Positions 656-35,415 of a stretch of DNA of 64,000 nucleotides are shown one piece after another; within the stretch, counting starts at the first letter, position 1, and each line of letters opens with the position of its first letter. The stretch covers positions 99,723 through 163,722 of the forward strand of contig JAFSAU010000016.1 in assembly GCA_017442155.1 (NCBI GenBank), read 5' to 3'. A program made the translations under genes and the position numbers. Source of the DNA: Clostridia bacterium (GTDB lineage Bacteria > Bacillota > Clostridia > UMGS1883 > UMGS1540). The notes under the pieces are model-generated. The model was not told the origin of the DNA. It saw only the letters and a list, made by a program, of their open reading frames with translations, and made no database searches.

Positions 656-3600
656 ATGACAATCAAAAACAATTTCTTACGGAAGGCGATTGCACTTCTG
701 ATACTACCGGCCCTTCTGGTGGGGCTGGTGCCCGCGGTCAATGCAAGTGAGCAATACCCACTGCCCGCTAAAAATGAGGAAAGTCTCGCAAGACTGTATG
801 CCAATCTTAAAAACGATATGGTCGGGTATGACTCGGAGATCATCAGACCGGGAACCAGCGAAGTGCATATGCAAGGTATTTGCGTTGATGATGCTTATAA
901 ATATTTGTATATATCGTATACAGAGGTTATAAACAAGGTGGACCTCGCAACCGGCGAAACTGTCGGCAGACTGGGCGGCTTTAAACTGACCGGTGGGAAG
1001 GGAAAACCCCATTTGGGCTGTATGGCGTATTATGATGGCCGTATTTACTGCTCCACCGGATACAAACAAGATGCTGTAAATAAATATTTTGTAATCGCCA
1101 TTGACGAAGATGCGTTTCCCATGGATGGCTCTTATAAAGATGTTGAACCTTTTCTGAATCCGGATCGTACGCAGGTGCCTGACGGTGAAAAAGATAACTA
1201 CCATGCCTTTTTCATGGCAGATGTTGTCGAAGGCAAAAGAAGTGGACTGTATCGTGCCGCGGGCATGGACGGTATTTGCTTTGGAGCATATCCGGGCGAT
1301 ACAAGCGGCGATACATATATGCTTGTATCTCAGAGCAGTGCAAGGGGACTTACGTATTATGATAACGATTATTGTGTTATCACCGCCTATAAGCTTGAAA
1401 ACTTTATAGGGGACACAAAGGTAGATATCCCCTTAACTACGGACAGAATAAAGAATACAGAATATACACAGGATGAGCGTTTGACCTCAGATAAACGGTT
1501 GTTTGTGCACACTGGTAACGTTTATGCGAGTGTTCAGAATATGGATTATGACAAGGACACAGGGGATTTGGTCCTTATTACCTATGAACCCACTAAAACC
1601 TGGAACCTGTATTTAAACGGTGTGTTGGGAAAAGAATCCAAGCCAAAGAAATACGTTATTGATGGAAGCAAAACCCCCGTGTATAAGACACTTGAGCTCG
1701 GACAAAGCAATAACGACAGGGACCCGGATGTAAAGCAGGCGGCAATTGACAGAGTAGAAAACTTCTATAAAGCAAACAACAACGGCGAGATTCCTAAGGG
1801 AGACCATGCCGTACTGAAATGTATATGCGGCCTGGGCAGTATGGACAACCATGAATGCATCAGTACCTATGTTGAATCCACCGGCGTAGATGCGGGACTT
1901 ACCGATTTAAAGCTTTGCTTCCGTGAAATTGACGATAGAGAAGATTATGGGCTTGCATCGTTGGGGGATGGATATTATTATGCAACCTGGGATTCCACGA
2001 AGGTCAGACTTTATAAGAGCAACGAAAACTATAAATTTACAAAGGTAAATCCGCCGGCACCTGAGCTGGAAGAATTGGTGCATCTAAAGATGAATGCCGA
2101 AGACCTGTATGTAGACGAAACCGGTACGCTTCGAATGAGAAATGCGCTGGACAATGGCTACGATGCCATCGTGCAAGGCACGTCAGCGGCGGAAGATCAG
2201 AACGATGTGGCGGGGAGTGCAACATATTTTAGCGGGTTCACGCATCCCACAAATCCGGACCGCATTTATCTGGACGAAGCTACCATGGATTACTTTAACC
2301 AGAAAACTAAAAAGAGGGGATATTCCTTCAGCTTCTGGGCAAAGATGGCCATGCCTAAAAATCGTGCAGGAAGAGCCATACCCGTTGCAGGTTTTTACAG
2401 AGAGGATAAAACCTATGGCGGTGTGTTCGAACTGCAGAAACGGCAAATCGTTGAATATAAAATAAACGGATTGGGTGAAGATACTGCCGGCAGCATTTCC
2501 AAGGACTACGGTCCGCCGATATACAGAACTTCAAAACAAACCGATGGAAAAATAGGAGATGATGCGTGGCATCACTTTGTTGTTACGGAACTGGATGGGT
2601 ATTCCTACATCTATTTAGACGGTGTTCCGGGACTTGTAAAGGATTCCACCAATACTGACACCACTGTTTTTAAATATGATCTCTATAAAGACAGGGCACA
2701 CATGAAAAACAAACCCTTTCAATACTTTGAAATCGGTGGAAGCCTTTATAACATTCATCAGGATTCAGAATTGCGCGGCAGACTGACAGGGGCAGTGGAC
2801 GATGTCAGAATTTTTGCAGGGATTTTGACGGCTGAGGATGTAGCGAATATGTATGCGGCAGGCGTTTCGGCGGCGAGTGATACAGAGGCTGCATATCCGG
2901 TCACAGCTACAGACGAAACAAACAGTGTTTTCACGCCGGCTTATCCCGTCTACAACAGAAGCACAGATGGAGGCGAAGAGCTGACGGTTACTGCCACAAA
3001 AGCAGTGCAGTCCGTCAGAGACCTTTTTGTTGGTACAGATTACACAGTAAGCGGCAATTCTATTACCTTTGCGAAGGAATATCTTGCAGGAAAAAGTCGA
3101 GGAATTCACGAGCTTTTGGTGACATTTGCGGATAACACAACGGAAACTTTGCACCTTACCGTCGTGGAGGATGGCGTGGCTGTTTTGGACTACAAGCTGA
3201 ATAGAGACAGTATAAGTGGCAAGACTGTTACCGACAGCAGTGCATACGGGGTGAATGCCGTATCCTCTGTCGCTCTAACGACATACGGGGAAAATCAGAA
3301 AGCGGAAAGTGACGGCGCGGTGTCTTTTGACGGCTTTGACTACGCAAACCCCCAGTACATCTATCTTGCAAAGGATAATGCACAGTGGCTGAATGCTGTT
3401 CTGAAGGATGGCTACACGGTAAACTTCTGGGCGAATGCCGGATTTGAAAACGGAAATAAAATGGCGCTTTTAGGTCTCTATAATCAAAGTGGACGTCCTT
3501 TGGGTGCTGTGGAGGAATATGATAAAGATTCAGCTACAAGCGGTACTGCTACCTTGATGAAGGATGGAAAAATGACCATACGTGCCGATGTCGGAAACGG

Positions 3601-4210
3601 ACGATACAGAGAGGAGAGTATCAATGCCACCGCTACCGAGCAGGTAAACACCAAGGAATGGGTAATGTACACCATGACCTTTGCAGACGGAAAACTTTCT
3701 CTTTATGTTTCGGCAAAGGATACAGTAAGAAAATGCTATACTAAAGAAGTGTCTGCAAATGTTCTCGGCGAAATAGCCCATTTCATTATTGGTGCAAATT
3801 ATAATCGGTATTATAAAGCGGATTCCTGGACGGATGACTACGAAGGGCGTGGGGGATTTTGTGGTTTGATGAGCGACGTTTCGGTATATCCGAATGCGAT
3901 GAATACAGCGGCCATTGAGAGACTATACCAGGGTGGCAGGGAGTTTATAATTATACCGACTGTATCCGGCACTAATACAGTCGACGTTGCGTTTTCCGCC
4001 GCACCGGAGGAAAAAGGCACTTTGCTTGTGGCTTTGTATGAAGAGAATCAGATGATTGCAATCAAAGTATTGCCCACCGACTGCGTTCATGCGACGTATA
4101 GAGTAGAACTTGATAAGGAGATTGGCTCCGGACAGCAAATAAAAGTGTTTGCACTCAAGGGCATCCGGACACTAAACCCCGGAAGCAACTGCGTGGTGAT
4201 TAATGTTTAA
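656..4210 (+). CDS. Large secreted protein (1184 aa) with two LamG/concanavalin-like lectin domains
   Basis: GGGAGG RBS followed by ATG. N-terminal signal peptide (KAIALLILPALLVGLVPAVNA). Two LamG_3-like segments (…DDVRIFAGILTAEDVANMYAAG…, …MSDVSVYPNAMNTAAIERLYQGG…). No catalytic motif recognised. Confidence 0.55.
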   Translation: MTIKNNFLRKAIALLILPALLVGLVPAVNASEQYPLPAKNEESLARLYANLKNDMVGYDSEIIRPGTSEVHMQGICVDDAYKYLYISYTEVINKVDLATGETVGRLGGFKLTGGKGKPHLGCMAYYDGRIYCSTGYKQDAVNKYFVIAIDEDAFPMDGSYKDVEPFLNPDRTQVPDGEKDNYHAFFMADVVEGKRSGLYRAAGMDGICFGAYPGDTSGDTYMLVSQSSARGLTYYDNDYCVITAYKLENFIGDTKVDIPLTTDRIKNTEYTQDERLTSDKRLFVHTGNVYASVQNMDYDKDTGDLVLITYEPTKTWNLYLNGVLGKESKPKKYVIDGSKTPVYKTLELGQSNNDRDPDVKQAAIDRVENFYKANNNGEIPKGDHAVLKCICGLGSMDNHECISTYVESTGVDAGLTDLKLCFREIDDREDYGLASLGDGYYYATWDSTKVRLYKSNENYKFTKVNPPAPELEELVHLKMNAEDLYVDETGTLRMRNALDNGYDAIVQGTSAAEDQNDVAGSATYFSGFTHPTNPDRIYLDEATMDYFNQKTKKRGYSFSFWAKMAMPKNRAGRAIPVAGFYREDKTYGGVFELQKRQIVEYKINGLGEDTAGSISKDYGPPIYRTSKQTDGKIGDDAWHHFVVTELDGYSYIYLDGVPGLVKDSTNTDTTVFKYDLYKDRAHMKNKPFQYFEIGGSLYNIHQDSELRGRLTGAVDDVRIFAGILTAEDVANMYAAGVSAASDTEAAYPVTATDETNSVFTPAYPVYNRSTDGGEELTVTATKAVQSVRDLFVGTDYTVSGNSITFAKEYLAGKSRGIHELLVTFADNTTETLHLTVVEDGVAVLDYKLNRDSISGKTVTDSSAYGVNAVSSVALTTYGENQKAESDGAVSFDGFDYANPQYIYLAKDNAQWLNAVLKDGYTVNFWANAGFENGNKMALLGLYNQSGRPLGAVEEYDKDSATSGTATLMKDGKMTIRADVGNGRYREESINATATEQVNTKEWVMYTMTFADGKLSLYVSAKDTVRKCYTKEVSANVLGEIAHFIIGANYNRYYKADSWTDDYEGRGGFCGLMSDVSVYPNAMNTAAIERLYQGGREFIIIPTVSGTNTVDVAFSAAPEEKGTLLVALYEENQMIAIKVLPTDCVHATYRVELDKEIGSGQQIKVFALKGIRTLNPGSNCVVINV

Positions 4211-4337: not shown

Positions 4338-5198
4338 TCAATCCTTGGCATTATTTATCATTTCTAAATACAGCATTCTGAATTTTTTCGGTGACATACC
4401 CACTCGCTCCTTAAAAAAGGTGGAGAAATAATAGGGATCATTGATTCCGATTGAAGATGCAATTTCAAAAAAGCTCTTATCCGTTTGTGAAATTAACTCA
4501 AGTGCCTTCTTTATGCGGATATTATCAAAGTATTTCATGGGCGAAACACCGAAATCCTCTTTAAATTTTCTAATAAAATAGTTAGGATGAAATTGGACAC
4601 AAGCGGCTAAATCCTTCACTGAAATTTCTTTATGAATATTCTCCTCCATAAATGTAATAACAGACTGCCAGGTGCCGATTTTAACAAAATTGTTTTTACT
4701 GCTTTCCAAAAAGAATGCCATGATTTCGGAAAGCTTTGAAATTCTGTTCAGATGATATGCTTCAATGCTTGTAAAATCGCTGTCTCGCCGTGCACTGTGC
4801 AGGCATTCTTCTAAACGTTCATAATTTTCCACATGCGCAATATAGTTGTCATCCGAGATGCAGAAAAAATCCGACCAATCAATGTCATTTATCTCGGCAC
4901 GTAAATGTATGTGATAAAACGATAGATTTTTAGAGAATTTCATGGAAATCATGCAGGGCATATTTTTAGGGAGTAATACTAATTCTTGCTTTTTAACCAG
5001 ATTGACTTTTTTATTAATTGATAGTAAAAATTCACCGTTTTCAACATAAATCATTGTGTTTTCGGCAAATTGATATTTTCCTTCCCACCGCGTACTCGGA
5101 GGATACGGAATATGTGTGACATCCTGAGGATAAAGAGAAAATTTTTGAATCCGGTAATCACCATTATTAATATAGTGCGTGTCGTTATATTGAGTCAA
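4338..5198 (-). CDS. AraC-family transcriptional regulator
   Basis: C-terminal AraC HTH (…KDLAACVQFHPNYFIRKFKEDFGVSPMKYF…). TTG start preceded by an AAGGGGTG RBS. Confidence 0.8.
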   Translation of the reverse strand: MTQYNDTHYINNGDYRIQKFSLYPQDVTHIPYPPSTRWEGKYQFAENTMIYVENGEFLLSINKKVNLVKKQELVLLPKNMPCMISMKFSKNLSFYHIHLRAEINDIDWSDFFCISDDNYIAHVENYERLEECLHSARRDSDFTSIEAYHLNRISKLSEIMAFFLESSKNNFVKIGTWQSVITFMEENIHKEISVKDLAACVQFHPNYFIRKFKEDFGVSPMKYFDNIRIKKALELISQTDKSFFEIASSIGINDPYYFSTFFKERVGMSPKKFRMLYLEMINNAKD

Positions 5199-5276: not shown

Positions 5277-5305
5277 TTGAAAATGTGCACATTTTCCTAT
5301 ATAAT
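5277..5305 (+). promoter_or_regulatory. Sigma-A-like promoter upstream of the GTPase-NYN gene
   Basis: TTGAAA, 17-bp spacer, TATAAT, about 35 bp upstream of the ATG at 5342. Confidence 0.4.
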
Positions 5306-5341
5306 GTATATAGAAATATATGATGAAAGAAAAGGTGAAGC

Positions 5342-7882
5342 ATGAAACGTTTGGTGATTGGCATATTGGCCCATGTAGATGCGGGAAAAACAACGCTTTC
5401 CGAGGGGCTTTTATATACGGCGGGAATAATCCGAAGCCTGGGGCGTGTGGACCACGGGAACGCTTTTCTGGACACCGATACCATCGAACGGAAGCGAGGC
5501 ATCACAATTTTTTCAAAACAGGCAATGCTGGAGACGGATGCGGTGTCTTTTACGCTCCTTGATACGCCGGGACACGTGGATTTTTCTGCGGAGATGGAAC
5601 GAAGCCTTCGGGTGTTGGATTATGCCATTTTGGTAGTCAGTGGCGCGGATGGTGTGCAAAGCCATACAGAAACGTTGTGGCGGATGCTGCGCCATTATGA
5701 TGTTCCCACCTTTATTTTTGTCAATAAAATGGATTTGCCTACAGATGGAGAAGAAAACCTATTGCAGTCCCTGGGACAGAAGCTGGATGGTGGTTGTGTT
5801 GCTTTTGGACAGGAGGACGATGCTTTTTTTGAAAATATCGCAATGCAAAGCAACACTCTTTTGGATGCGTATCTCTCTGTCGGTAAACTTTCTGTTGATT
5901 CCATTGCCGATGCGATTGCATCGCGGCAGATTTTCCCTGTTTACTTTGGTTCAGCACTGAAAAATACCGGCGTCCGGGCCTTATTTGAGGGCGTTTGTCG
6001 GTACACGCAAGAAAGAAAGTACTCTTCCGCTTTTGGAGCAAAGGTATTTAAAATTTCCGAGGATGAAAAAGGGCAGCGACTTGCTTATTTAAAGATTACA
6101 GGAGGCACTCTTCCTGTCAAAAGCACTTTGGAGGGAAAGGGTTGGAGTAGGAAAATAAATGAAATCCGCATTTACTCCGGGGATAAATATAAAAACGTTC
6201 AGGAGGCGGCAGCGGGGAGTGTTTGTGCAATCCCGGGAATTGAAAAAACCTTTCCCGGTGAAGGGCTTGGGACAGAGCGGGAGGATGAAGTGCTTCTTTC
6301 TGAGCCGGTACTAACCTATGGTGTTCTTCTGCCGGAAGGAACAGACGTCCTCGCGGCACTTTCTGTTTTCCGTAAACTGGAGGAAGAAGAAACACAGATG
6401 CATGTTCTATGGAATGAGCTTCTGGCAAAAATTGATATTCAGGTTATGGGCGAGGTGCAGCTTGAGGTTATAAAAGAAATTCTGGAAACACGATTTGGAC
6501 TTACTGTTCGTTTTACAAGTGGCAGTATTATATATAAAGAAACAATTCGGAATACGGTTGAAGGCGTGGGTCATTTTGAGCCTCTGCGGCATTATGCAGA
6601 GGTGCATGTCCTGCTGGAACCGGGAAAAAAGGGCGGCGTTGAAATTGTGTCAGCCTGTCCGGAGGATTCACTGTCAAAAAACTGGCAACGTCTTATCCTG
6701 ACCCATCTTGCAGAAAAGACACACCGTGGCGTTCTTACCGGTGCACCCATAACCGATATTAAAATTACATTGATTGCGGGTCGTGCCCATGTTAAACATA
6801 CCGAGGGCGGTGATTTTCGCCAGGCTACGTATCGTGCCGTGCGTCAAGGCTTGATGCAGGCGGAAAGCGTCCTGCTTGAACCATGGTATTCCTTCATGCT
6901 GGAGGTACCCCAGGAATCCGTCGGGCGGGCACTGACGGATTTGGAAAGAATGGGTGCACAGTTTTCTGCACCGGAGGTAGGAGAGGTGTCCTCGGTAATC
7001 CGGGGCAAAGCACCCATCTCCCGGATGCGGGAATATCATACGACTGTCCTTGCTTATTCTCGTGGGAAAGGGCGTCTGGCTTGTACTTTCTGCGGTTATG
7101 ATGCGTGTAAAGATGCTGAATCTGTCATTGCAGAAATCGGATACGACCCCGAGGCAGATCTTGCCAACACGCCGGATTCTGTATTTTGTTCTCATGGGGC
7201 AGGGGTACTGGTGAAGTGGGACGAGGTATTTGAGCACATGCATATTCCCACGATTGCAAAACAACAAGAGGAAGCACAAATCCCGGTTGCCGCGCCTCAA
7301 CACAGAAAAATGCTGGAGGATGATGCAACACTTCTTGCTATTTACGAGCGCACCTATGGAAAAATCAGACAGAAAGACCCCGGTCGGACTCTGCATACCC
7401 CCCGTCTGCAAAAGGAATATAAGGCAAAGTCGATTCCCATGGGTCCGACATATTTGCTTGTGGACGGTTATAATATCATTTTTGCATGGGAGGACCTTTC
7501 AAAAATCGCACAGGAAAGCCTGGAAACTGCCCGCTCTCTTCTTATAAGTCGGCTATGTAATTATTGTGCCATGCGGGATTTCCGGATCATTGTTGTGTTT
7601 GATGCATATCGCGTTCCCGGTGCTTTTCGCGAAATAGAAGAGGTTCATGGCATTAGTGTGGTATATACAAAAGAAGCTGAAACGGCAGATGCCTATATAG
7701 AAAAAACTTCAAAAGAGCTTGTTAAAAACTATCGTGTCCGTGTTGCTACGTCGGACCGTCTGGAGCAAATCATTGTGTTTGGACAGGGGATTCAAAGGGT
7801 TTCTGTCTCAGAATTTTTATCCGAGGTACGTGTCGCAGAAGGGGAAATGCGGACATTTATTGAGGAAAATAATGGAAAATGA
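5342..7882 (+). CDS. TetM/TetO/EF-G-like translational GTPase fused to a C-terminal YacP/Rae1-like NYN (PIN-like) ribonuclease domain
   Basis: N-terminus GILAHVDAGKTTLSEGLLY…DTPGHVDF…NKMD supplies the G1/G3/G4 motifs of trGTPases and is very close to the TetM N-terminus. C-terminal residues about 690-846 (LLVDGYNIIFAWEDL…IIVVFDAY…VATSD…) align with B. subtilis YacP/Rae1 (LLVDGYNMIGAW…VIVVFDAH…VATSD). Confidence 0.8.
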   Translation: MKRLVIGILAHVDAGKTTLSEGLLYTAGIIRSLGRVDHGNAFLDTDTIERKRGITIFSKQAMLETDAVSFTLLDTPGHVDFSAEMERSLRVLDYAILVVSGADGVQSHTETLWRMLRHYDVPTFIFVNKMDLPTDGEENLLQSLGQKLDGGCVAFGQEDDAFFENIAMQSNTLLDAYLSVGKLSVDSIADAIASRQIFPVYFGSALKNTGVRALFEGVCRYTQERKYSSAFGAKVFKISEDEKGQRLAYLKITGGTLPVKSTLEGKGWSRKINEIRIYSGDKYKNVQEAAAGSVCAIPGIEKTFPGEGLGTEREDEVLLSEPVLTYGVLLPEGTDVLAALSVFRKLEEEETQMHVLWNELLAKIDIQVMGEVQLEVIKEILETRFGLTVRFTSGSIIYKETIRNTVEGVGHFEPLRHYAEVHVLLEPGKKGGVEIVSACPEDSLSKNWQRLILTHLAEKTHRGVLTGAPITDIKITLIAGRAHVKHTEGGDFRQATYRAVRQGLMQAESVLLEPWYSFMLEVPQESVGRALTDLERMGAQFSAPEVGEVSSVIRGKAPISRMREYHTTVLAYSRGKGRLACTFCGYDACKDAESVIAEIGYDPEADLANTPDSVFCSHGAGVLVKWDEVFEHMHIPTIAKQQEEAQIPVAAPQHRKMLEDDATLLAIYERTYGKIRQKDPGRTLHTPRLQKEYKAKSIPMGPTYLLVDGYNIIFAWEDLSKIAQESLETARSLLISRLCNYCAMRDFRIIVVFDAYRVPGAFREIEEVHGISVVYTKEAETADAYIEKTSKELVKNYRVRVATSDRLEQIIVFGQGIQRVSVSEFLSEVRVAEGEMRTFIEENNGK

Positions 7883-7895
7883 ATAAAAATAATTA

Positions 7896-7915
7896 AATAA
7901 TGCATAAATATTCTT
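7896..7915 (+). promoter_or_regulatory. Putative ARG box (ArgR/AhrC operator) upstream of the arg operon
   Basis: aaTGCATAAATATTCttg resembles the TGAAT-AAAA-ATTCA ARG-box core. A second weaker half-site follows the -10 (atagaaaatATTCAtt). Confidence 0.35.
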
Positions 7916-7924
7916 GAAAAACCC

Positions 7925-7953
7925 TTGACAAAAGGGGAAAAAGCGTGTATAAT
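7925..7953 (+). promoter_or_regulatory. Consensus sigma-A promoter of the arg operon
   Basis: TTGACA (7925-7930), 17-bp spacer, TATAAT (7948-7953). It lies about 45 bp upstream of the argC ATG. Confidence 0.55.
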
Positions 7954-7999
7954 ATGCGAAAAGATATAGAAAATATTCATTTCGGAAAGGGAAAGGTAT

Positions 8000-8932
8000 A
8001 TGAAAACGGTATTTATTGACGGTAGTGCCGGCACTACGGGACTACGTATATATGAGCGTTTGGAGGGGCGGGAGGATATTCAACTTATCCGTCTTTCAGA
8101 GGAAGTACGAAAGGACGCGGCGGCTCGAAAGGAAGCAATAAACCGAGCTGACATCGTGTTCCTCTGTCTGCCGGATGCGGCGGCTGTTGAGGCGGTGTCC
8201 CTTTGTGAAAATTCCGAAACGGTGATTATTGACACCTCAACGGCACATCGCACAAATCCGGATTGGACCTACGGTTTTCCGGAACTTGGAAATAACCGTG
8301 AGAAAATCAGAACAGCCTCGCGGATTGCAAACCCCGGCTGTCATGCCAGCGGATTCATTGCTCTGATTCAGCCTCTTGTCAGCCATGGATTACTTTCTTC
8401 CGACGCGTTTCTGACCTGCTTTTCTCTGACCGGATATTCGGGCGGCGGCAAAAAGATGATAGCGGAATATGAAGGGGAAAAGCTTCCTGCGCTCTATAAA
8501 GCTCCCCGTCAGTATGGTCTTGCGCAAAACCATAAGCATCTGCCGGAAATGGCGGCGGTTTGCGGTCTGGTAAATGCTCCGGCTTTTTCGCCCATTGTGG
8601 CGGATTTCTATAGCGGTATGGAGGTTTCTGTTCCGCTTTTCGCTAAGTATATTTCAGGTAGCTTGGAGGACATTAAAGCGGTATACCGTGATGTATATAA
8701 GAAAGGACTTGTACAGTTTTGTGAAGAAACAGACGAGGGGGGATTTCTTTCTGCGGCGGCCTACGCCGGAAGGGATGATATGGAGGTCACCGTGATGGGC
8801 AATGCAGACAGAATTCTGCTCACGGCCCGGTTTGATAATTTAGGAAAAGGGGCTTCCGGCGCGGCAATACAGAATATGAACATTGTTATGGGAGTGCCCG
8901 AGGACACGGGTCTTACGGTGAAAGGAGAATAA
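8000..8932 (+). CDS. argC: N-acetyl-gamma-glutamyl-phosphate reductase (short form)
   Basis: 310 aa. N-terminal NAD-binding motif (IDGSAGTTG) and catalytic Cys in NPGCHA. First gene of a cluster of arg genes. Confidence 0.9.
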   Translation: MKTVFIDGSAGTTGLRIYERLEGREDIQLIRLSEEVRKDAAARKEAINRADIVFLCLPDAAAVEAVSLCENSETVIIDTSTAHRTNPDWTYGFPELGNNREKIRTASRIANPGCHASGFIALIQPLVSHGLLSSDAFLTCFSLTGYSGGGKKMIAEYEGEKLPALYKAPRQYGLAQNHKHLPEMAAVCGLVNAPAFSPIVADFYSGMEVSVPLFAKYISGSLEDIKAVYRDVYKKGLVQFCEETDEGGFLSAAAYAGRDDMEVTVMGNADRILLTARFDNLGKGASGAAIQNMNIVMGVPEDTGLTVKGE

Positions 8933-13234: not shown

Positions 13235-14278
13235 ATGAAGAAAGCATATCTGATTTTAGAAAATAAAACAGTGCTGGAAGGAACGCGCATTGGTGCGGAA
13301 GGAGAGTCCTATGGAGAGCTGGTGTTCACCACGGGGGTTGTCGGTTATCTTGAAACACTGACAGATTCTGCCTTTGCAGGCCAGATTATACTGCAGTCCT
13401 TCCCACAGATAGGAAACTACGGTGTCATAGAGGAGGACCTTGAGGGACCCTGTCTTGCTGCAGGTTATGTGGTGCAGGACCTTTGTACATCTCCTTCAAA
13501 CTTTCGCGCAGAATATGACTTGAACACATACCTTAAAAAAGCAGGTGTTCCCGGCATTATGGGAATAGATACGCGAGCACTTGTGCGTCTTTTGGGACGG
13601 GAAGGAGCAATGAGAGCCTGCATTATGGATGCAGTTCCGGCCGATTTGGATTCTGTTTTTTCCAAGCCTTTACCCGCGACCTTGGCGGGATGTGCGGAAA
13701 AGAGGGTGATTCCGGCAAAGGGGATAAAAAAATACAATGTTTCCGTTTTAGATTTTGGGATATCGAAAAATATGCTTTCTGCACTCACAGAGAGGGGCTG
13801 TGAGGTGATGCTCTGGCCCAAAAACAGCACTGCGTCAGACATTCAGGCCGCAAAACCGGACGGGTTGCTGATTTCAGCAGGTCCCGGTGATCCGGAAGAT
13901 TACCCGGAGCAAACGGCCGAAATTAAAAAACTCATCGGTACGGTGCCAACCCTTGGTATCGGTCTCGGCCATCAGCTCTGCGCCCTTGCAATGGGTGGAA
14001 AAACAGAGAAGCTTTTCTGCGGGCACAGGGGTGCAAATCACCCGGTGAAAAGTGCAGACGGACGTGTTTATATTGTACAGCAGAATCACGGTTATACGGT
14101 GAAAAAAGAAAGCCTTCCTGGTGCAGGTGAACTTTTTATCAATTTGCATGACGGCACTAACGAGGGGCTTATATATCCGGAAAAAGGATGTTTTACGGTG
14201 CAGTTTTATCCTGTAGGACATACAGACTTTATCTGGGATGCTTTCATAAAAGAAATGGGAGGGAACGGCAATGCCTAA
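13235..14278 (+). CDS. carA: Carbamoyl-phosphate synthase small (glutaminase) subunit
   Basis: CPSase small-chain N-terminus plus a class-I glutamine amidotransferase domain (GIGLGHQL). Confidence 0.9.
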   Translation: MKKAYLILENKTVLEGTRIGAEGESYGELVFTTGVVGYLETLTDSAFAGQIILQSFPQIGNYGVIEEDLEGPCLAAGYVVQDLCTSPSNFRAEYDLNTYLKKAGVPGIMGIDTRALVRLLGREGAMRACIMDAVPADLDSVFSKPLPATLAGCAEKRVIPAKGIKKYNVSVLDFGISKNMLSALTERGCEVMLWPKNSTASDIQAAKPDGLLISAGPGDPEDYPEQTAEIKKLIGTVPTLGIGLGHQLCALAMGGKTEKLFCGHRGANHPVKSADGRVYIVQQNHGYTVKKESLPGAGELFINLHDGTNEGLIYPEKGCFTVQFYPVGHTDFIWDAFIKEMGGNGNA

Positions 14279-17200
14279 AGATAAATCCATTCAGAAGGTA
14301 CTGGTTATCGGTTCCGGTCCTATTGTTATTGGCCAGGCAGCAGAATTCGACTATGCAGGTGCGCAGGCTTGCCGTGTACTTCGGAGCGAGGGTATCAATG
14401 TTGTATTGGTAAATTCCAATCCTGCAACGATTATGACAGATAAAAATCTTGCAGATGAAATATATCTGGAGCCGCTTAATGCAGATACGGTGCGTCGCAT
14501 CATTGAAAAAGAACAGCCGGACGGCCTTCTGGCAGGCCTCGGTGGGCAGACGGGACTGACAATCGCCATGCAGCTGACTCGTGACGGCACTCTTGCAAAA
14601 AATGGGGTACGTTTGCTCGGTACTGATATCGATGCAATTGAGAAGGCGGAGGACAGGGAGCTGTTCCGGAATGCCATGCAGGAAATTGGACAGCCTGTAG
14701 TTCCGTCTGAAATTGCCACAACGGTCGAGGAAGCTTTGTCCGCGGCTGTGGGCATCGGTTATCCCGTTATTGTTCGTCCGGCCTTTACGCTGGGCGGAAG
14801 CGGCGGCGGTATTGCGGGTGATGAATCCGATTTACGGACAATTGCCAAAACGGGTCTTGATATGTCGCCCATTACCCAGGTGCTTATTGAAAAATGTATT
14901 TCCGGCTGGAAGGAAATTGAGTTTGAAACCATGCGCGATAGCGCGGGGAACGCTATTGCTGTCTGTTCTATGGAAAATGTGGACCCGGTGGGGATCCACA
15001 CCGGCGATTCCATTGTTGTTGCCCCTGCACTCACGCTTTCGCCTAAAGAATATACGATGCTTCATGATGCGGCACTGGATATGGTGGCCAAAATTGGCAT
15101 TGTGGGCGGCTGTAACTGTCAGTTTGCATTAAATCCGGATAGCTTTGAATATGCGGTGATTGAGGTAAATCCACGTGTTTCCCGTTCTTCAGCACTCGCT
15201 TCCAAGGCAACCGGATATCCGATTGCTAAAATCACAACCAAAATTGCCCTTGGATACACACTTGATGAAATTCAAAATGATATCACCGGCAGTACATCGG
15301 CTTGCTTTGAACCGACTGTGGATTATGTGGTGGTTAAGTTCCCTAAATGGCCCTTTGAAAAATTTGCCACGGCCAGTCGGGTACTTGGTACGCAGATGAA
15401 AGCCACGGGTGAGGTGATGGCGATTGCCCCTTCCTTTGAAGCTGCACTTATGAAGGCTGTGCGCGGAGCAGAAATTTCACTGGACACGCTGGATGCTAAA
15501 CCAATTTCAGATCTTTCACTTATGGAACGGCTTGCCGTAGCGGACGATCGCCGCATTTTCACGGTGTTTGAAGCAATTAAAAAAGGTGTTACCGTTGACG
15601 AAATTTTTGCAATTACAAAAATTGACCGGTGGTTTCTCAACAAAATAAAAAACCTTGCAGAGTTTGAAACAGAAATTAAAAACGGACTTTCGGACGAAAA
15701 GTATTGTCTCGGTAAAAAACTTGGGTATACGGATGCCGCACTGTCCCGTATATCCGGCCGCACGGATTTGCCGGAAGGCACTCTGTGCTATAAGAAGGTA
15801 GATACTTGTGCCGGAGAATATGAGGCAGTAAAGCCCTATTTTTATTCTGATTTTGGTGGAGAATGTGAAGCCAGAGGTTTTGTCCGCTCCGGCAAGCCGG
15901 TTATTATGGTGTTAGGTTCCGGACCGATTCGCATTGGTCAGGGAATTGAATTTGATTATAGTAGTGTGCATAGCGTATGGACACTGCAGAAAATGGGATA
16001 CGATGTGGTTATTGTCAATAATAATCCGGAGACAGTTTCCACGGACTATGATACGGCTGACCGCCTTTATTTCGAGCCGCTTTCGCCGGAAGATGTTATG
16101 CACATCATAAATATTGAAAAGCCCATCGGCGTCGTGGTGGCGTTCGGGGGACAGACGGCAATAAAGCTTACTAATTTTTTAGATAACGCCGGGATTCCCA
16201 TTTTAGGGACGTCTGCTGATGGAATTGACATGGCCGAAGACCGCGAGCGTTTCGATGCGTTACTTGAAAAATTTGGCATCCGCCGTCCGCGAGGTCTCGG
16301 GGTTCGCACGATGGAAGAAGCCTTAGAGGCGGCAAAATCCCTTGGATATCCGGTTTTGCTCCGTCCGTCGTACGTGATTGGCGGTCAGAACATGACGATT
16401 TCACGCGGCGATGAACAGACACGCCGGTATATGAAAGCAATTCTGTCCACGGGTATTGAAAATCCCGTGCTGGTTGATAAATATATGCCTGGGACAGAAC
16501 TTGAGGTTGACGTTATTTCTGACGGTGAGGACGTACTGATTCCCGGTATAATGGAGCATATAGAGCGCGCAGGCGTACATAGCGGTGATTCCATTGCGGT
16601 ATACCCGCCCTATAACCTCAGCGATAAATTGCTCGATAAAATCTGCCGTTCTGCAGAAAAACTGGCACTTGCACTGGGAACAAAAGGACTTGTCAATATT
16701 CAGTATTTAGTTTACCAGAATGAGCTGTATGTCATTGAGGTGAATCCCCGTGCTTCGCGCACAGTGCCTTATATCAGTAAGGTGACAAATGTGCCGATGG
16801 TGGACCTGGCCTCCAGGGTTATGCTTGGTGAAAAGCTGGCGGACCTTGGCTACGGAACGGGACTTTATCGAACACCGCCTTATTTTGCGGTTAAGGTACC
16901 GGTTTTTTCTTTTGAGAAGCTACACGATGCAAACTCTATGCTCAGTCCGGAAATGAAATCCACAGGAGAAGTGCTTGGTATTGGTAAAACTATGCCCGAA
17001 GCTTTGTTTAAAGGTCTTTCTGCCGCAGGTTTTGCGTTCCCGGACGAAAACGAGCGAGGCAGGACCGGTGTTCTTATCAGTGTGGAGGAAAGCGACTACG
17101 AGGAAAGTATTTCTCTTGCAAAGCGTTTCCACGACCTGGGAATTCATATTTATGCTACCACCGGCACTGCAGCGGCAATCCGCACATTAGGTATAGACGT

Positions 17201-18290
17201 TAAAGATGTGGAAAAAGAAAAAATTGAAGAACTGATGGAGGGTGGAAGTCTTTCGTATATTATTTATACCGGGGCGGTTAAAGACGGAACGGTTGGGGAC
17301 TATATTGCACTTCACAAACGGGCTATGCAGCTTGGTGTACCATGCCTTACCTCACTGGATACGGCCGGCGCACTGGCCGACATTATTGAAGGTCGTTTCA
17401 ATGGTGCAAATACGGAACTTGTGGATATCAATGCTATGCGTCCCTGGCGGAGGAAGATTCGTTTTGCAAAGATGCATTCTGCCGGAAATGATTATATTTT
17501 CATTGAGAATTTTGATGGAGGAATCACTTGCCCTGAGTCCCTTTGTGTCAGTCTCTGTGCACCACATTACGGTATCGGCGGCGATGGAATTGTACTGATT
17601 GAACGATCTTCTGTTGCAGATGCTAAAATGCGAATTTTCAACCGTGACGGCAGCGAAGGACGGATGGCAGGAAACAGCATCCGTTGTGTTGGTAAATATC
17701 TTTATGACAAAGGGTATGTTCGCAGTGAGTTTATTTCTGTGGAAACCTCCGGAAGCGTTAACCTTCTTCGGCTGTATCTTCGCGACGGTAAGGTCAGCAC
17801 GGTAACCGTGGATATGGGACGTGCCGACCTGAAAGCAGCGTCTATTCCGGCTTTAGTAAATGCAGAAACGTTGATAAATTATCCGCTGTCCGTTGGGGGT
17901 GACACCCATCGTGTAACCTGTGTTTCGCTGGGGAATCCACACTGTGTGCTGTTTTGTGACAGTATTGACGCCATCGATACGGCGGCGATCGGTCCGGCTT
18001 TTGAATATGCCGACGTATTTCCGGAGCGCGTGAATACAGAATTTGTTCGGGTTGTAAACAAAACGACACTTCGTATGCGTGTGTGGGAGAGAGGAAACGG
18101 CGAAACTCTTTCCTGCGGCACAGGGGCTTGTGCGGCGGTGGTGGCTGCTGTGGAAAATGGTTTTTGCGAAAAAAATACGGATGTGGTTGTAAAACTTCGT
18201 GGAGGGGATCTTGTGGTTAATTACAGCGATGAGCGTATTCTTCTCACTGGAAGTGCTGTCATGGTCTTTGAAGGTGAATTTGAATACTAA
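14271..18290 (+). CDS. carB: Carbamoyl-phosphate synthase large subunit (to about 17435) fused in frame to a diaminopimelate epimerase (DapF) domain (about 17436-18290)
   Basis: Two ATP-grasp halves and an MGS-like domain account for about 1055 aa. There is no stop codon before KMHSAGNDYIF…GIGGDG…NRDGSEGRMAGNSIRC…CGTGACAA, which is a full DapF fold. The first catalytic Cys of DapF (xCGNG) is replaced by Ala (MAGNS); the second (CGTGACA) is retained. Confidence 0.8.
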   Translation: MPKDKSIQKVLVIGSGPIVIGQAAEFDYAGAQACRVLRSEGINVVLVNSNPATIMTDKNLADEIYLEPLNADTVRRIIEKEQPDGLLAGLGGQTGLTIAMQLTRDGTLAKNGVRLLGTDIDAIEKAEDRELFRNAMQEIGQPVVPSEIATTVEEALSAAVGIGYPVIVRPAFTLGGSGGGIAGDESDLRTIAKTGLDMSPITQVLIEKCISGWKEIEFETMRDSAGNAIAVCSMENVDPVGIHTGDSIVVAPALTLSPKEYTMLHDAALDMVAKIGIVGGCNCQFALNPDSFEYAVIEVNPRVSRSSALASKATGYPIAKITTKIALGYTLDEIQNDITGSTSACFEPTVDYVVVKFPKWPFEKFATASRVLGTQMKATGEVMAIAPSFEAALMKAVRGAEISLDTLDAKPISDLSLMERLAVADDRRIFTVFEAIKKGVTVDEIFAITKIDRWFLNKIKNLAEFETEIKNGLSDEKYCLGKKLGYTDAALSRISGRTDLPEGTLCYKKVDTCAGEYEAVKPYFYSDFGGECEARGFVRSGKPVIMVLGSGPIRIGQGIEFDYSSVHSVWTLQKMGYDVVIVNNNPETVSTDYDTADRLYFEPLSPEDVMHIINIEKPIGVVVAFGGQTAIKLTNFLDNAGIPILGTSADGIDMAEDRERFDALLEKFGIRRPRGLGVRTMEEALEAAKSLGYPVLLRPSYVIGGQNMTISRGDEQTRRYMKAILSTGIENPVLVDKYMPGTELEVDVISDGEDVLIPGIMEHIERAGVHSGDSIAVYPPYNLSDKLLDKICRSAEKLALALGTKGLVNIQYLVYQNELYVIEVNPRASRTVPYISKVTNVPMVDLASRVMLGEKLADLGYGTGLYRTPPYFAVKVPVFSFEKLHDANSMLSPEMKSTGEVLGIGKTMPEALFKGLSAAGFAFPDENERGRTGVLISVEESDYEESISLAKRFHDLGIHIYATTGTAAAIRTLGIDVKDVEKEKIEELMEGGSLSYIIYTGAVKDGTVGDYIALHKRAMQLGVPCLTSLDTAGALADIIEGRFNGANTELVDINAMRPWRRKIRFAKMHSAGNDYIFIENFDGGITCPESLCVSLCAPHYGIGGDGIVLIERSSVADAKMRIFNRDGSEGRMAGNSIRCVGKYLYDKGYVRSEFISVETSGSVNLLRLYLRDGKVSTVTVDMGRADLKAASIPALVNAETLINYPLSVGGDTHRVTCVSLGNPHCVLFCDSIDAIDTAAIGPAFEYADVFPERVNTEFVRVVNKTTLRMRVWERGNGETLSCGTGACAAVVAAVENGFCEKNTDVVVKLRGGDLVVNYSDERILLTGSAVMVFEGEFEY

Positions 18291-18463: not shown

Positions 18464-18540
18464 CAGTAGTCTGATGCACATGCGATAAGTATGTGCATTT
18501 TTTTGTTTTTATAGGAAAGACTATGGTTGAGGTGAGAAAA

Positions 18541-20241
18541 ATGCAGACCTATTACCAGAAAAACCAAGCCGGAAGTCTGGATATTATTTTATACGTATCC
18601 GCGGAGGAAATGGGTATGGATTTCTCTTCGTTGAAAAATTTTTTTAAGACTTACGGGTGGGGAAAACGAAGAGTAGCACTTATAAGACGGGTTAAAATTG
18701 TTATTGCCGGCACAGTCGTACTTGTAATTCCGTTTTCTTTTTTTGCAAAAGTGGGAGCAAATGAGCGTTATGCCATGTCCTATGTCTATTATGGAACAGG
18801 GGAAGCACAATTGGAAAGTCTTTCAGTGGCAGAGGACACGCTCTCGGCAGTATCGCCCAGCTACTTTAATATCGCAAATGACGGCAGTCTGTCTTTGATC
18901 GGAATCAGTGAAATGTTTATTAACAAAATGCATGATTCAGGAATTGAGGTTGTCCCGTTTCTGAGTAACCACTGGGATCGCAAATCCGGTGAAAATGCAT
19001 TGAAAAACGGAGAGATGTTAGCGCGGGATGTAGCTTCTGCCGTCAAAAAATATAATCTCGATGGGGTAAATGTTGATATAGAAAATGTGACGGAGGAATA
19101 CAGGGCGATGTATACGGATTTTGTGCGTCGTCTCCGCGAGCTTCTACCAGACAATAAAGAGGTTTCTGTGGCTGTTGCGGCAAACCCATGGGGTGTGACA
19201 ACCGGATGGACCGGATCTTATGATTATGAGGGTCTTTCCAAAGTGTGTGACCACCTCTTTATTATGGCGTATGATGAGCATTACCAAGGGGGAGAAGCAG
19301 GAGCGGTAGCAGGGATTGATTTTGTGGAACAATGCATTCAGTATGCACTTACGCAGGCACCTGCAGAGAAACTTGTACTCGGTATACCCTTTTACGGAAG
19401 GATCTGGGGTGGTCCACTCCGTGGGTATGGCATTTCTCTACAGAAAATTGAGAGTCTTACGGAGCAGTACGAAACAAACGTACAGTTTGACACAAAAACA
19501 CAGACACCCGTTATGCTTCTTACGATAAAAGACGGGCAAGCGGGGCCTGTCATCGGAGGACAGAAGCTTTCTTCCGGCACATATATGATTCATTATGAAA
19601 ATGCGGATTCAATCAAAGCTAAGCTTTCATTGGCGGCAAAATACAATCTGAAGGGCGCGGGAAACTGGAGTGCCGGTCAGGAGACAGAGGATGTATGGGA
19701 CTATTATGAACTCTGGCTGAATGGAAAATATTTTTCGGATATCTCTGAACATTTTGCTAAGGACGAAATTTTACAGATTTCAGCAGAAGGTATTATGACA
19801 GGACAGACAGATACACTTTTTGCTCCATCGTCATATCTGTCGCGGGCAGAGGTTGCCGTTATCTGCACCCGTTTACTGACGCTTGCGAAGGGGACTGTTG
19901 TTTTTACTGATGTTCCCTCCGACCATTGGGCCTATGATGCCATACAAAGAGTGGAAAGAGAAGGCATTATGGTGGGGTATGAGGATGGGACTTTTCGGCC
20001 GGATGAACCGGTGACCCGTGCAGAGATGTCGCGACTTTTAGCAAGAATGGTGGAACAGACCTACGCAGGAGAAAGTGGTTTTTCTGATGTTTCGGATAGG
20101 CATTGGGCAAAGGAAGAAATATCGGCATTGGCGAGAATGGGTGTTCTCACAGGATATCCGGACAACACTTTCCGGCCGGATAATAAAATAAACCGCGGCG
20201 AAGCCGCGGTCATTTTACAGCGTATTAAAGAATGGTTATGA
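18541..20241 (+). CDS. GH18-family (chitinase-like) protein with an N-terminal membrane anchor and three C-terminal SLH domains
   Basis: GH18 motifs (DGVNVDIENV, …FIMAYDEHY…). Three SLH repeats (FSDISEHFAKDEI…, FTDVPSDHWAYDAIQ…, FSDVSDRHWAKEEI…). Start chosen at the ATG after GAGGTGA; the ORF track begins at 18493. Confidence 0.7.
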   Translation: MQTYYQKNQAGSLDIILYVSAEEMGMDFSSLKNFFKTYGWGKRRVALIRRVKIVIAGTVVLVIPFSFFAKVGANERYAMSYVYYGTGEAQLESLSVAEDTLSAVSPSYFNIANDGSLSLIGISEMFINKMHDSGIEVVPFLSNHWDRKSGENALKNGEMLARDVASAVKKYNLDGVNVDIENVTEEYRAMYTDFVRRLRELLPDNKEVSVAVAANPWGVTTGWTGSYDYEGLSKVCDHLFIMAYDEHYQGGEAGAVAGIDFVEQCIQYALTQAPAEKLVLGIPFYGRIWGGPLRGYGISLQKIESLTEQYETNVQFDTKTQTPVMLLTIKDGQAGPVIGGQKLSSGTYMIHYENADSIKAKLSLAAKYNLKGAGNWSAGQETEDVWDYYELWLNGKYFSDISEHFAKDEILQISAEGIMTGQTDTLFAPSSYLSRAEVAVICTRLLTLAKGTVVFTDVPSDHWAYDAIQRVEREGIMVGYEDGTFRPDEPVTRAEMSRLLARMVEQTYAGESGFSDVSDRHWAKEEISALARMGVLTGYPDNTFRPDNKINRGEAAVILQRIKEWL

Positions 20242-24271: not shown

Positions 24272-25321
24272 TCATATAATAAGCTCTGTAATAACGTAAT
24301 TGGCAATATCCATGCCACGCTCTGTAAGACGGATGTTTTCACCATGTTTTTCTAAAAGTCCGGCACGAATCAAGCGTGGCACATTGCTATTTCCGTCATA
24401 CCGGATGCCTTTCCGCAACCGAAGTCCAAGCATGTATCGTTCTTCGTAACGGTCAGCATCCGTCAGAACAGTTTTATTTGCCACAGCATCCGTGGATGAA
24501 ATGTACGCTTTTAAATCACAAGTGTTTTCATACCTTACGCCGTCCGTATATCCGTGTGCACCGGCACCAAGACCGATATATTCACCGCAAAGCCAGTAGT
24601 TTGTATTATGCATTGCTTCAAAACCGGGACGGGCGAAATTGGAAATCTCATACTGCAGAAACCCGTGCCCTTCCAGAGACCGGCGAAGGGAATAATACAT
24701 TTCTCTTTCGGCCTCCTCCTCCGGCAGTTCCGGAGAGCGTACCGCAAAAGGAGTCCCATCCTCGATGCTTAGAGAATAGGCAGAAATATGCGAAACCGGC
24801 AGGTTACAAAGCTGATCGGCAGAAAAGGCCACATCCTCCGGCGTCTGTCCGGGTAATCCAAACATAAGGTCTGCCGAAATGTTTTCAAATCCTGCATTTG
24901 ACGCATCAAGGATTGTCTGAGCTGCATCCTCCGCCGAATGGAGACGCTCTAAGAACTGAAGTTCTTCATTCTTCAGAGATTGCACACCGATACTAATTCG
25001 ATTAAATCCAGCACGACGTAAAATCTGTAGCGAGGCGGGGGACACGGTGGCGGGATTTGCCTCCACTGTAATTTCGCCATTGCATGGGAATCTTTCAAGA
25101 AGTGTAGCCAAAAGGTCTTTAAGCAGTGTGGGTGGCAAGACAGTTGGGGTCCCGCCGCCGAAATATATTGTATCCACAGGACGCGGAGAAAATAAACGGG
25201 ATTCCTGTATTACCCTTTCCACATAGGCCGGAAAAAGTGATTCTGCACCGCTTACGGAATAGAATGCACAATATGGACATTTGCGGAGGCAAAAGGGGAG
25301 ATGTACATATAGTCCGATCAT
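24272..25321 (-). CDS. hemW: Radical SAM heme chaperone HemW (HemN-like, oxygen-independent coproporphyrinogen-III oxidase family)
   Basis: N-terminus [20 protein letters not shown]. About 350 aa, sitting immediately downstream of lepA as in many Firmicutes. Confidence 0.85.
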
Positions 25322-27123: not shown

Positions 27124-27297
27124 AAAATTGCTCCTTATTTTCATTCATTCTATATATCATACCATAAAACCAGAAAAAATGGAAGGATAAAATTATAAAT
27201 TTTAAAATTTTTTAAAAAACCCAATGTTTTCCAAGAATATTTTTCGCTACAAGGTAAACACTAACAGCACGATTTGAAATTTAAAGGAGTTTTTCAT

Positions 27298-32066: not shown

Positions 32067-32123
32067 AACGATTTTGTTTTCGAGAAGCGGATTATATTGG
32101 CTCAGAAAGAAAGGAAAGACAAA

Positions 32124-35267: not shown

Positions 35268-35415
35268 ATCGGACGGGAAAATGAAAAAAACTTAATTATA
35301 TTGGGGAACTACAGGCACACAGCTTGCGGTATTGCGGCACGGAAACGGATGGAGAGCGGGGACCGCATGACATGGCGTTGTGTGCCTTTGCATATTTCAG
35401 ATGGGAGAGAATGGT

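Follow-up and report, generated by a model that had tools for sequence, protein, structure and literature searches.

The question raised by the gene at positions 5342..7882 (+) of a 64,000-nucleotide stretch of contig JAFSAU010000016.1 (Clostridia bacterium, assembly GCA_017442155.1; the whole stretch is called the window in the following) is what a translational GTPase and an endoribonuclease of the Rae1 type do together in one polypeptide, and whether the GTPase part deserves the tetracycline resistance name under which such proteins are found in databases. An open reading frame (ORF) of 846 amino acids (aa) occupies exactly this interval. Our preferred reading, to which we assign a rough probability of 0.55, is that the product is a bifunctional ribosome-quality-control factor, that is a GTPase-docked equivalent of Rae1 that would serve ribosome rescue. 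It starts from the observation that both catalytic centres are intact and conserved, and therefore a ribosome-targeted RNA-cleaving factor is the natural reading of the protein. The original prediction had gone in the same direction. Its combination of a GTPase and a Rae1-like NYN domain in a single polypeptide is borne out by the Pfam architecture, and its ORF, motifs, and motif positions were all recovered in the ORF list and by motif search. Its description as a GTP-gated, ribosome-targeted factor that cleaves messenger RNA (mRNA) survives as far as the intact centres carry it, whereby the activity itself is transferred from homologues and the logic that tied it to the ribosomal A site was dropped.

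Domain architecture and catalytic centres

The gene and its product consist of the following elements.

5277..5305 (+): promoter-like site of the fusion gene, TTGAAA-17-TATAAT, 11/12 matches
5332..5338 (+): ribosome-binding site AAGGTGA, read directly; it precedes the ATG at 5342
5342..7882 (+): whole coding sequence with GTPase body, extension, tether, and NYN nuclease; over 120 full-length homologues have this architecture as well
5342..6010 (+): G domain, aa 1-223 (Pfam GTP_EFTU at 4-223, E 8.7e-51)
6038..6514 (+): EF-G-like domain II (aa 233-303) and domain III (aa 320-391) (Pfam EF-G_D2 and EFG_III)
6524..6862 (+): domain IV, aa 395-507, the segment that would enter the A site of the 30S subunit (Pfam EFG_IV, E 3e-18)
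6776..6838 (+): tip of domain IV, loop III, aa 479-499, AGRAHVKHTEGGDFRQATYRA (family signature)
6869..7114 (+): domain V, aa 510-591 (Pfam EFG_C, E 1.3e-13)
7115..7246 (+): C-terminal mini-domain of the GTPase subfamily, aa 592-635; helix, beta-hairpin, helix; predicted local distance difference test score (pLDDT) 71-84
7247..7447 (+): tether, aa 636-702, mostly disordered (pLDDT <50 at 649-659 and 676-695)
7313..7366 (+): conserved tether helix, aa 658-675; consensus D-E-E-L-x-x-I-F-E-R-T-Y-G; a helix in both AlphaFold2 (AF2) models
7448..7879 (+): Rae1/YacP-type NYN endoribonuclease domain, aa 703-846 (Pfam NYN_YacP; active-site D708, D754, D783, and D805)

The ATG at 5342 was taken as the start because the family consensus N-terminus MKRLVIGILAHVD also opens the window protein. 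The EF-G-like body comprises five domains (aa 1-591) and is followed by a conserved extension (aa 592-635). In the G domain, the motifs AHVDAGKT (starting at residue 10), RGITI (52), DTPGH (74), NKMD (128), and GSA (203) mark G1 (AHVDAGKTT, 10-18), T55 of switch I, G3 (74-78), G4 (128-131), and G5 (GSAL, 203-206), whereby His78 of the G3 motif is the catalytic histidine of the GTPase. The EFG_III match at 320-391 is weak and lies under the Pfam cut-off; the AF2 model is confident across domains II and III. At the other end of the protein, LLVDGYN (705), VVFDA (751), ETAD (780), and ATSD (802) belong to the nuclease. The profile search of this region yielded NYN_YacP (PF05991) at 705-844 with E 7.8e-46 and 156.5 bits against a cut-off of 24.6, so that both the fold and its acidic catalytic residues are present. 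Between the two catalytic parts a linker of about 110 residues had originally been proposed. The segment does separate them, and it is made up of the structured mini-domain (592-635) and the tether of ~67 residues (636-702), of which only the latter is mostly disordered. The mini-domain has the invariant residues Y601, D606, S613, F615, C616, G619, and W626 and gave no match in the Pfam scan. Around its junction with domain V (aa 581-618, nucleotides (nt) about 7082-7195) C589, C616, and H618 are (nearly) invariant, and going by this conservation they could be a candidate metal site; C581 and C584, of which the former would complete a candidate Zn site (C581/C589/C616/H618), vary in distant members.

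Conservation was assessed in two sets, namely a close set of 121 sequences (the query and 120 homologues at 56-99% identity) and a distant set of 82 sequences (the query and 81 full-length cluster representatives at 39-57% identity). G1 (AHVD[AS]GKTT), T55, DTPGH with His78, NK[MT]D, and GSAL are invariant in 121/121 close and 81-82/82 distant members. The same applies to D708 (followed by G-Y-N), D754, D783, and D805 of the nuclease, which are found in 121/121 and 82/82 members, respectively. Aligned with Rae1, the window protein keeps the equivalents of D7 (D708) and D81 (D783), and the D7N/D81N double mutant of Rae1 is catalytically dead in vivo (PMC10351889). The hallmarks of NYN_YacP proteins according to Matelska 2017, G-Y-N after the first Asp and four or more Asp in the active site (PMC5499597), are all present. 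Both catalytic centres are intact and, as the alignments indicate, under strong purifying selection.

For the full-length AF2 model 69 family sequences were used; its mean pLDDT is 81, and the EF-G-like body as well as the NYN domain are predicted with confidence. In Foldseek searches the body superposes on EF-G, EF-G2, mtEF-G2, and aEF2 (E about 1e-51, ~680 columns), whereby no solved chain spans both body and nuclease. The C-terminal 220 residues match the crystal chains 5MQ8/5MQ9 of B. subtilis YacP/Rae1 (E 2e-25). A second AF2 model of aa 575-846 matches 5MQ9_A with E 2.9e-12, a template modelling score of 0.77, 2.4 A, and 39% identity over 145 columns, followed by other PIN-like nucleases as the next best folds. 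Modelled separately, the two parts thus recover an EF-G fold and a Rae1 fold. In the fold search with the isolated C-terminal model, Rae1 and PIN-like proteins were the only matches, all of them for the NYN part, and the mini-domain and the tether helix were left unmatched, as they were in the Pfam scan. Identity between the NYN domain and B. subtilis Rae1 amounts to 39-41%.

The tether is homologous across the family. Between the mini-domain and the strand that opens the NYN domain it is 63-192 aa long in 79 diverse members, never falling below 63 aa, and 63-81 aa long in the close family. Its last 28 residues before the nuclease are basic (net charge +5). In the tether helix, the close family shows no variation at L664, I667, E669, Y672, and G673, and E663, I667, F668, and G673 are still conserved at 39-57% identity. 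This minimum length together with an internal conserved motif suggests that the nuclease reaches a site far from the C-terminus of the body and that the helix docks on something; the helix is therefore presented here as a candidate docking motif.

The GTPase subfamily and its relation to Tet proteins and EF-G

The original prediction held that the GTPase part closely resembles TetM and EF-G. This could not be upheld: identity is ~30% and 28%, respectively, the protein falls into a separate clade, and loop III and the C-terminal helix of the Tet proteins are absent. The best NCBIfam match is tet_protect (NF012153), yet with 394 bits against a cut-off of 775. All Tet-specific models failed, among them Tet_M_W (263 bits vs. 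1100) and Tet(M) (213 vs. 1420), and the EF-G model TIGR00484 reached 290 bits against a cut-off of 659. Among solved structures, the protein is as far from TetO (230 bits) as it is from EF-G (227 bits). Plasmid-borne Tet(M), Tet(O), Tet(S), and TetB(P) share 27-31% identity with the window protein, in alignments that end at residues 586-603.

The differences are most evident in domain IV. In TetM, loop III is described as the functionally most important loop, and its Pro509 overlaps bound tetracycline (PMC7456112). The loop of the window protein, AGRAHVKHTEGGDFRQATYRA, differs from that of TetM, YGLYYSPVSTPADFR, as well as from that of EF-G, DGSYHEVDSSEMAFK. L505/Y506/Y507/S508/P509/V510 of TetM align to R481/A482/H483/V484/K485/H486, so that the Y-Y-S-P-V-S tip of TetM (506-511) is aligned to A-H-V-K-H-T and Pro509 corresponds to an invariant lysine, Lys485. 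The tip reads R-A-H-x-K-H-T-E-G-G-D-F-R throughout the family, and in the family alignments the conservation of loop III (0.95) equals that of the P-loop. In loop I of domain IV, GVGHFEPLRHYAE (aa 408-420), the EF-G motif SGGRGQ[YF]GH is replaced by GHFEPLRHYAE and the loop is 4 residues shorter. Furthermore, the C-terminal extension of Tet proteins is required for TetM function, and the mini-domain 592-635 is unrelated to this extension or its helix. A bootstrapped neighbour-joining (NJ) tree of 71 sequences and 587 columns gave 100/100 support to a clade of the fused proteins with unfused relatives, 100/100 to the Tet clade, which excludes the window protein, and 100/100 to both together against EF-G. 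In this phylogeny the GTPase belongs to a clade of its own, which has unfused members and the Tet ribosomal protection proteins as its sister group.

Unfused sisters were found by a genome scan in a Coriobacteriaceae isolate, Bifidobacterium avesanii, Neobacillus cucumis, and Intestinibacter bartlettii, and a plasmid search added others on megaplasmids of Ligilactobacillus salivarius, so that unfused members occur in Bacilli, Peptostreptococcaceae, and Actinobacteria. They show 40-55% identity to the window protein across residues 1-634, share its domain-IV loops and mini-domain, and likewise fail the Tet cut-offs. Because they end right past the mini-domain, at ~residue 634, the fusion can be described as a complete member of the GTPase subfamily plus a tether plus Rae1. 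No NYN domain was found within 10 kb of the unfused sisters. In the NJ tree two unfused proteins are basal and three are nested among the fused ones, at a resolution too weak to count gains or losses.

RefSeq/PGAP applies the label 'TetM/TetW/TetO/TetS family tetracycline resistance ribosomal protection protein' to a fused protein of Agathobacter rectalis (NZ_CP143948.1, locus stretch 6090-8891) and to an unfused sister of L. salivarius (NZ_CP062072.1, locus stretch 7001-8920). In view of the sequence comparisons above, this label is probably misleading for fused and unfused proteins alike, and resistome counts from gut metagenomes could come out too high because of it.

Distribution, genomic setting, and standalone Rae1

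The fused architecture was already known from two papers, which named it 'Tet' and only recorded it. Atkinson 2015 (BMC Genomics 16:78, Additional file 8) catalogued ten TetM-like/NYN_YacP fusion proteins of Clostridia, namely those of R. albus, E. eligens, E. rectale, B. proteoclasticus, C. cellulolyticum, C. lentocellum, L. phytofermentans, and R. thermocellum as well as two of D. hafniense. Matelska et al. 2017 (NAR 45:6995; PMC5499597) took note of the 'TetM-NYN_YacP fusion' once more and considered its role unclear. The initial impression that no characterised protein has this architecture is thus right in so far as our full-text literature searches found no experimental study of the fusion protein; the architecture itself had been catalogued in 2015 and 2017. 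Two recent Rae1 papers do not mention the GTPase fusion. The window protein aligns end to end with R. albus 7 YP_004106010 (54% identity, 857 aligned columns), and its signature loops are common to all ten sequences of Atkinson 2015.

A search with the linker and NYN segment against 50%-identity cluster representatives returned 370 representatives at E<1e-30. The best 150 of these 370, all at E<1e-42, comprise 81 complete fusions (822-1156 aa), the rest being fragments that retain the linker; among the best 120 homologues of the protein, all have the GTPase with a C-terminal PF05991. Naturally split forms with separate linker and NYN genes were considered and rejected, since the short entries are assembly or gene-call fragments, one of them ending in translated adapter sequence. 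A scan of GTDB species genomes located fused genes in Oscillospiraceae, Lachnospiraceae (Blautia, Acetatifactor, Pseudobutyrivibrio), and other Clostridia as well as in cultured Monoglobus and Agathobacter. The fusion is therefore found widely in other Clostridia (at least 150 clusters at E<1e-42), and the window gene belongs to a large family of the class (Oscillospirales, Lachnospirales, and relatives) that is known from sequence. One full fused gene (54% identity) lies on a contig binned as Bacteroidota, CAVJLG010000039.1 (labelled Barnesiella intestinihominis), for which contamination of the bin is likelier than a true presence outside the Firmicutes.

With regard to its setting, the gene had been placed at the head of a group of housekeeping genes under its own sigma-A-like promoter. 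The promoter part of this statement stands, given the promoter-like site at 5277..5305. The gene is not the head of an operon: argC, 118 nt downstream, has a perfect TTGACA-17-TATAAT promoter of its own at 7925-7953 (+), because of which the fusion gene looks monocistronic and an operon with the arg genes was rejected. The downstream genes are argC, argJ, argB, argD, argF, and carA/B. On the upstream side, directly adjacent and divergent, lies a gene for an AraC-family regulator (4338-5198, -) with a GC content of 0.35 compared with ~0.47 in its neighbours and with a perfect promoter of its own (5245-5217, - strand). Near-identical strains are without this gene; their upstream gene stops 205 nt before the fusion gene, and their homology to the window starts 83 nt before the ATG, including the promoter and not extending further upstream. 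The AraC-family gene looks like a recent strain-specific insertion, and the helix-turn-helix link hinted at by Matelska 2017 is for this reason not applicable here.

The Rfam scan detected no RNA leader, riboswitch, or tet(M)-type attenuator near the gene, the 5' untranslated region of which is only ~35 nt long, and neither a tet(M)-type leader peptide nor Tn916-type neighbours were found at the window locus. A conserved gene neighbourhood was rejected as well: homologues lie in unrelated contexts with varying neighbours and without mobile-element genes, and each locus examined carries one solitary, chromosomal copy of the fusion gene. Mobility was rejected, since the fusion is present on no more than two plasmid records, each of them a non-mobilizable megareplicon or a piece of chromosome that carries housekeeping genes. 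Plasmid statistics meet a trap in the long-read community assembly OY7257xx, in which chromosome pieces of Monoglobus, Collinsella, Subdoligranulum, and Bacteroides were deposited as numbered 'plasmids'. Carriage by phages was rejected because the two records in question, MT835563.1 and MT835514.1 ('UNVERIFIED: Bacteriophage sp.', human gut virome scaffolds), are fragments of bacterial chromosomes; MT835514.1 carries AddA/AddB, FeoB, GltX, GlpK, and a DinG-like helicase. PADLOC gave no match for the fusion protein at E<=0.01.

In standalone form, Rae1 is a free protein of ~170 aa that binds ribosomes only transiently (2026 preprint). Its canonical cluster is cysS-mrnC-rlmB-rae1-sigH with a free single-domain product, and the slot rlmB-NYN-sigH was seen in Listeria and C. 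difficile. In the window, the domain is fused and its gene lies beside arg genes, and no second NYN_YacP was found in the 64 kb. In the fusion carrier Monoglobus pectinilyticus, unrelated genes follow rlmB and no NYN is detectable there, and the slot after rlmB is likewise empty in Vescimonas fastidiosa (Oscillospiraceae). Only one of the Monoglobus records scanned has an NYN match, which is the fusion itself, whereby the assembly comes in at least 18 separate 'plasmid' records, part of which the scan covered. These suggestive gene arrangements indicate that the fusion probably replaces standalone Rae1 in these lineages.

Several further observations were made in the window and at homologous loci. 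Just upstream of the argC -35 box, at 7901-7914 (+), lies the ARG-box-like sequence TGCATAAATATTCT, the sole match in the window, although at least one match also occurred in 14/100 shuffles; going by its sequence and position, it may be an ArgR/AhrC operator. A single ORF of 1339 aa (14271-18290, +) contains the carbamoyl-phosphate synthase large chain and a C-terminal DAP_epimerase (aa about 1217-1332), which is either a real CarB-DapF fusion or the result of a lost stop or frameshift between two genes. The sole Pfam match of a 1940-aa ORF (48532-54354, +) is the phage MuF C-terminal domain (aa 1266-1367). This domain is typical of large polymorphic or phage-/conjugative-element-derived proteins, and the ORF may point to the remains of a mobile element. 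A cluster of very large proteins that are secreted or located at the cell surface (Laminin_G_3, SLH, CBM_4_9, GH18) is encoded at 656-4210 (+), 18493-20241, 32097-35267, and 35380-38385; the first of them, a 1184-aa protein just upstream of the fusion gene, has no NCBIfam match, and in related strains its position is taken by another SLH protein. Besides the fusion gene, the window contains just one gene for a translational GTPase, lepA (EF4; 25318-27144, -; 1001 bits against TIGR01393). In Anaerotruncus CABJAH010000002.1, smpB (5414-5881), which encodes the partner of transfer-messenger RNA (tmRNA), lies ~2 kb upstream of the fusion gene. This was not seen at the other loci examined and is probably due to chance.

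Proposed mode of action, rival readings, and known systems

For the preferred ribosome-rescue function, the following sequence of events would make sense. The EF-G-like body in its GTP form would dock at the factor-binding site of a ribosome that is unable to proceed, and its domain IV would be located in the A site of the 30S subunit or directly at it; EF-G and TetM-type factors insert theirs into this site (PMC7456112). Because domain IV fills the A site, the nuclease would have to act elsewhere, and the tether would let it reach the mRNA at the solvent side of the 30S subunit. In the most likely arrangement the GTPase would sit on the trailing, collided ribosome in its rotated, EF-G-receptive state, and the NYN domain would cut the mRNA between the entry channel of the trailing ribosome and the exit side of the leading one, thereby reproducing the cut position of Rae1. 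GTP hydrolysis would then release the factor, and the truncated mRNA would send the upstream ribosome(s) to tmRNA/SmpB rescue. This scheme can be compared with what has been reported on Rae1, the cut of which falls ~12 nt upstream, where a stalled or collided ribosome has its tail; the A-site docking proposal of 2017 was replaced by its own authors. Rae1-dependent cleavage on collided ribosomes feeds tmRNA rescue (2026 preprint), and the experimental work on Rae1 showed mRNA substrates and dependence on translation (PMC10351889). The NYN domain of the fusion presumably shares the chemistry of Rae1 as well as its substrate, mRNA on stalled ribosomes.

Several points weigh against this interpretation and explain why it is put forward with reserve. 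All functional steps, that is RNA cleavage, ribosome binding, and GTPase activity, are carried over from homologous proteins, and sequence does not decide between leading and trailing ribosome nor fix the cut position. The NYN domain of the fusion ends ~25 residues before the C-terminus of Rae1, and therefore its ribosome contacts may differ from those of Rae1. The placement of the NYN domain relative to the body is not confident in the AF2 model, as judged by pLDDT only, the tether scoring low. Unfused GTPases nest among the fused ones, which means that the GTPase has a function without a covalently attached nuclease. Finally, the replacement of standalone Rae1 was deduced from one split and partly covered assembly and one window.

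Among the rival explanations, the one that survives best, though it is considerably less probable than the preferred reading, differs in the ribosome that is bound. Here, the body would bind the leading stalled ribosome in a TetM-like manner (non-rotated, with a vacant A site, for example at a hungry codon or where a drug blocks the A site), and the NYN domain would cut downstream, at the entry channel, whereby 3'-to-5' trimming after the cut would yield a non-stop complex for tmRNA. The entry channel is the nearest mRNA outside the A site on the same ribosome, and from ribosome geometry its nearness to the bound factor would suit such a cut. Two features of the subfamily fit as well, namely that the clade is sister to Tet and that loop I is Tet-like and not EF-G-like, and TetM-type factors are known to bind ribosomes with an empty A site (PMC7456112). 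However, standalone Rae1 cuts upstream of the stalled ribosome and not downstream, and the tip of domain IV is neither Tet- nor EF-G-like, for which reason a preference for a ribosomal state cannot be read from it.

Less probable again, and in our view unlikely, is that the target is ribosomal RNA (rRNA) or transfer RNA (tRNA), whereby the protein would dock on immature, damaged, or idle ribosomes and serve maturation, turnover, or translational shutdown. The C-terminus of an A-site-bound factor lies near h44, the decoding centre, and the sarcin-ricin loop region in structures of EF-G and TetM, and this nearness would bring a C-terminal nuclease close to such targets. In addition, early genomic-context work put YacP in an rRNA/tRNA-processing neighbourhood with mrnC and rlmB (PMC5499597; Atkinson 2015). 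Against this stand the experiments with Rae1, which point to mRNA and to translation, and the tether of at least 63 aa, which would be needless for a target beside the docking site.

A protection protein against tetracycline or another A-site antibiotic, equipped with an accessory RNase, as speculated by Atkinson 2015 and as implied by the RefSeq names, is quite improbable. It would agree with tet_protect as the best NCBIfam match (394 bits), with the PGAP names, and with the position of the clade as sister to Tet. However, the score is half of the curated cut-off, the Tet-specific models fail for the window protein and for the unfused sisters too, and identity to Tet proteins does not exceed 27-31%. 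Loop III including Pro509 is replaced by the invariant R-A-H-x-K-H, the Tet extension is absent, and the gene lies in a chromosomal context without a tet(M)-type leader, a Tn916-type neighbour, or mobile-element genes.

Among the classic toxins are RNases that depend on the ribosome, such as RelE. An effector with a toxin-like role or a role in abortive infection against phages, which would cut RNA on ribosomes and thereby shut down translation, would follow this precedent, and the Rae1 preprint speculates on the cutting of phage mRNA, to which the two 'Bacteriophage sp.' records could be added; such a role is nonetheless very improbable, since there is no PADLOC match and no conserved partner, antitoxin, or immunity gene among the varying neighbours, the 'phage' records are bacterial chromosome, and the family is broad with a solitary copy per locus. 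Just as hard to believe is the model originally proposed, in which an A-site delivery module is joined to an A-site nuclease and the NYN domain would reach the A site by way of the GTPase and cleave the A-site codon there: it matches the Rae1 docking proposal of 2017, but this was replaced by its authors, domain IV, with a tip among the most conserved segments of the protein, itself fills the A site, and the minimum tether length of 63 aa speaks for a target further away.

If the ribosome-rescue reading holds, the fusion could be of use for Rae1 research in general. According to the 2026 preprint a ribosome-bound structure of Rae1 does not exist, its binding being transient. A natural tethered version would give a handle for cryo-electron microscopy and for cut-site mapping, and thereby for the recognition of stalled or collided ribosomes by Rae1, whereby the GTPase could be locked by a non-hydrolysable GTP analogue or by a His78 mutant. 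A further prediction from the fusion is that Rae1 and the GTPase clade are functionally linked; this clade is present in cultured Firmicutes of the gut and of industry, several of which are accessible to genetics. Going one step further, a Rosetta-stone interpretation would be that this sister-of-Tet GTPase subfamily senses ribosomes unable to translocate and recruits or positions Rae1-type nucleases, an idea that we regard as tentative and rather doubtful. If it were true, the unfused GTPase would, in organisms where the two genes are separate, be the missing partner by which the transiently binding Rae1 finds collided ribosomes, and the result would be a bacterial GTPase-gated no-go decay, functionally analogous (and non-homologous) to Hbs1-Dom34 plus Cue2.

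Compared with the TetM-like/NYN_YacP fusions of Clostridia that were catalogued before, the window protein shows no structural difference, as architecture and signature motifs are the same. What is added to the papers of 2015 and 2017 is the recognition of a separate non-Tet clade with unfused members in which the drug-displacing loop of Tet is absent, the extension of the family far beyond ten species, the tether helix and minimum tether length, and the empty rae1 slot in one carrier.

With Tet(M)/Tet(O) the window protein shares a five-domain EF-G-like GTPase of similar length, the Tet-style loop I, and the D-F-R motif after loop III, and the Tet proteins are its nearest outgroup clade. It differs from them by an identity of only ~30% and in having neither the Y-S-P-V of loop III nor the C-terminal helix, the leader peptide, or the mobile-element context. 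EF-G has in common with it the overall fold, the GTPase motifs, and a His at the position of the tip His of EF-G domain IV, whereas the body of the window protein is shorter (~590 aa vs. ~690). To Rae1 of B. subtilis it is connected by the NYN_YacP fold, D-G-Y-N, and the four active-site Asp; the difference is that the window domain is tethered to a GTPase, has ~25 C-terminal residues fewer, and is encoded elsewhere. As to systems in which a ribosome sensor or NTPase is coupled to an mRNA endonuclease or rescue module, the fusion resembles MutS2/RqcU (ATPase plus SMR), SmrB, yeast Cue2, and Hbs1-Dom34. The folds are unrelated in this case (SMR vs. NYN; MutS ATPase vs. EF-G-like GTPase), so that the likeness is one of analogy only.

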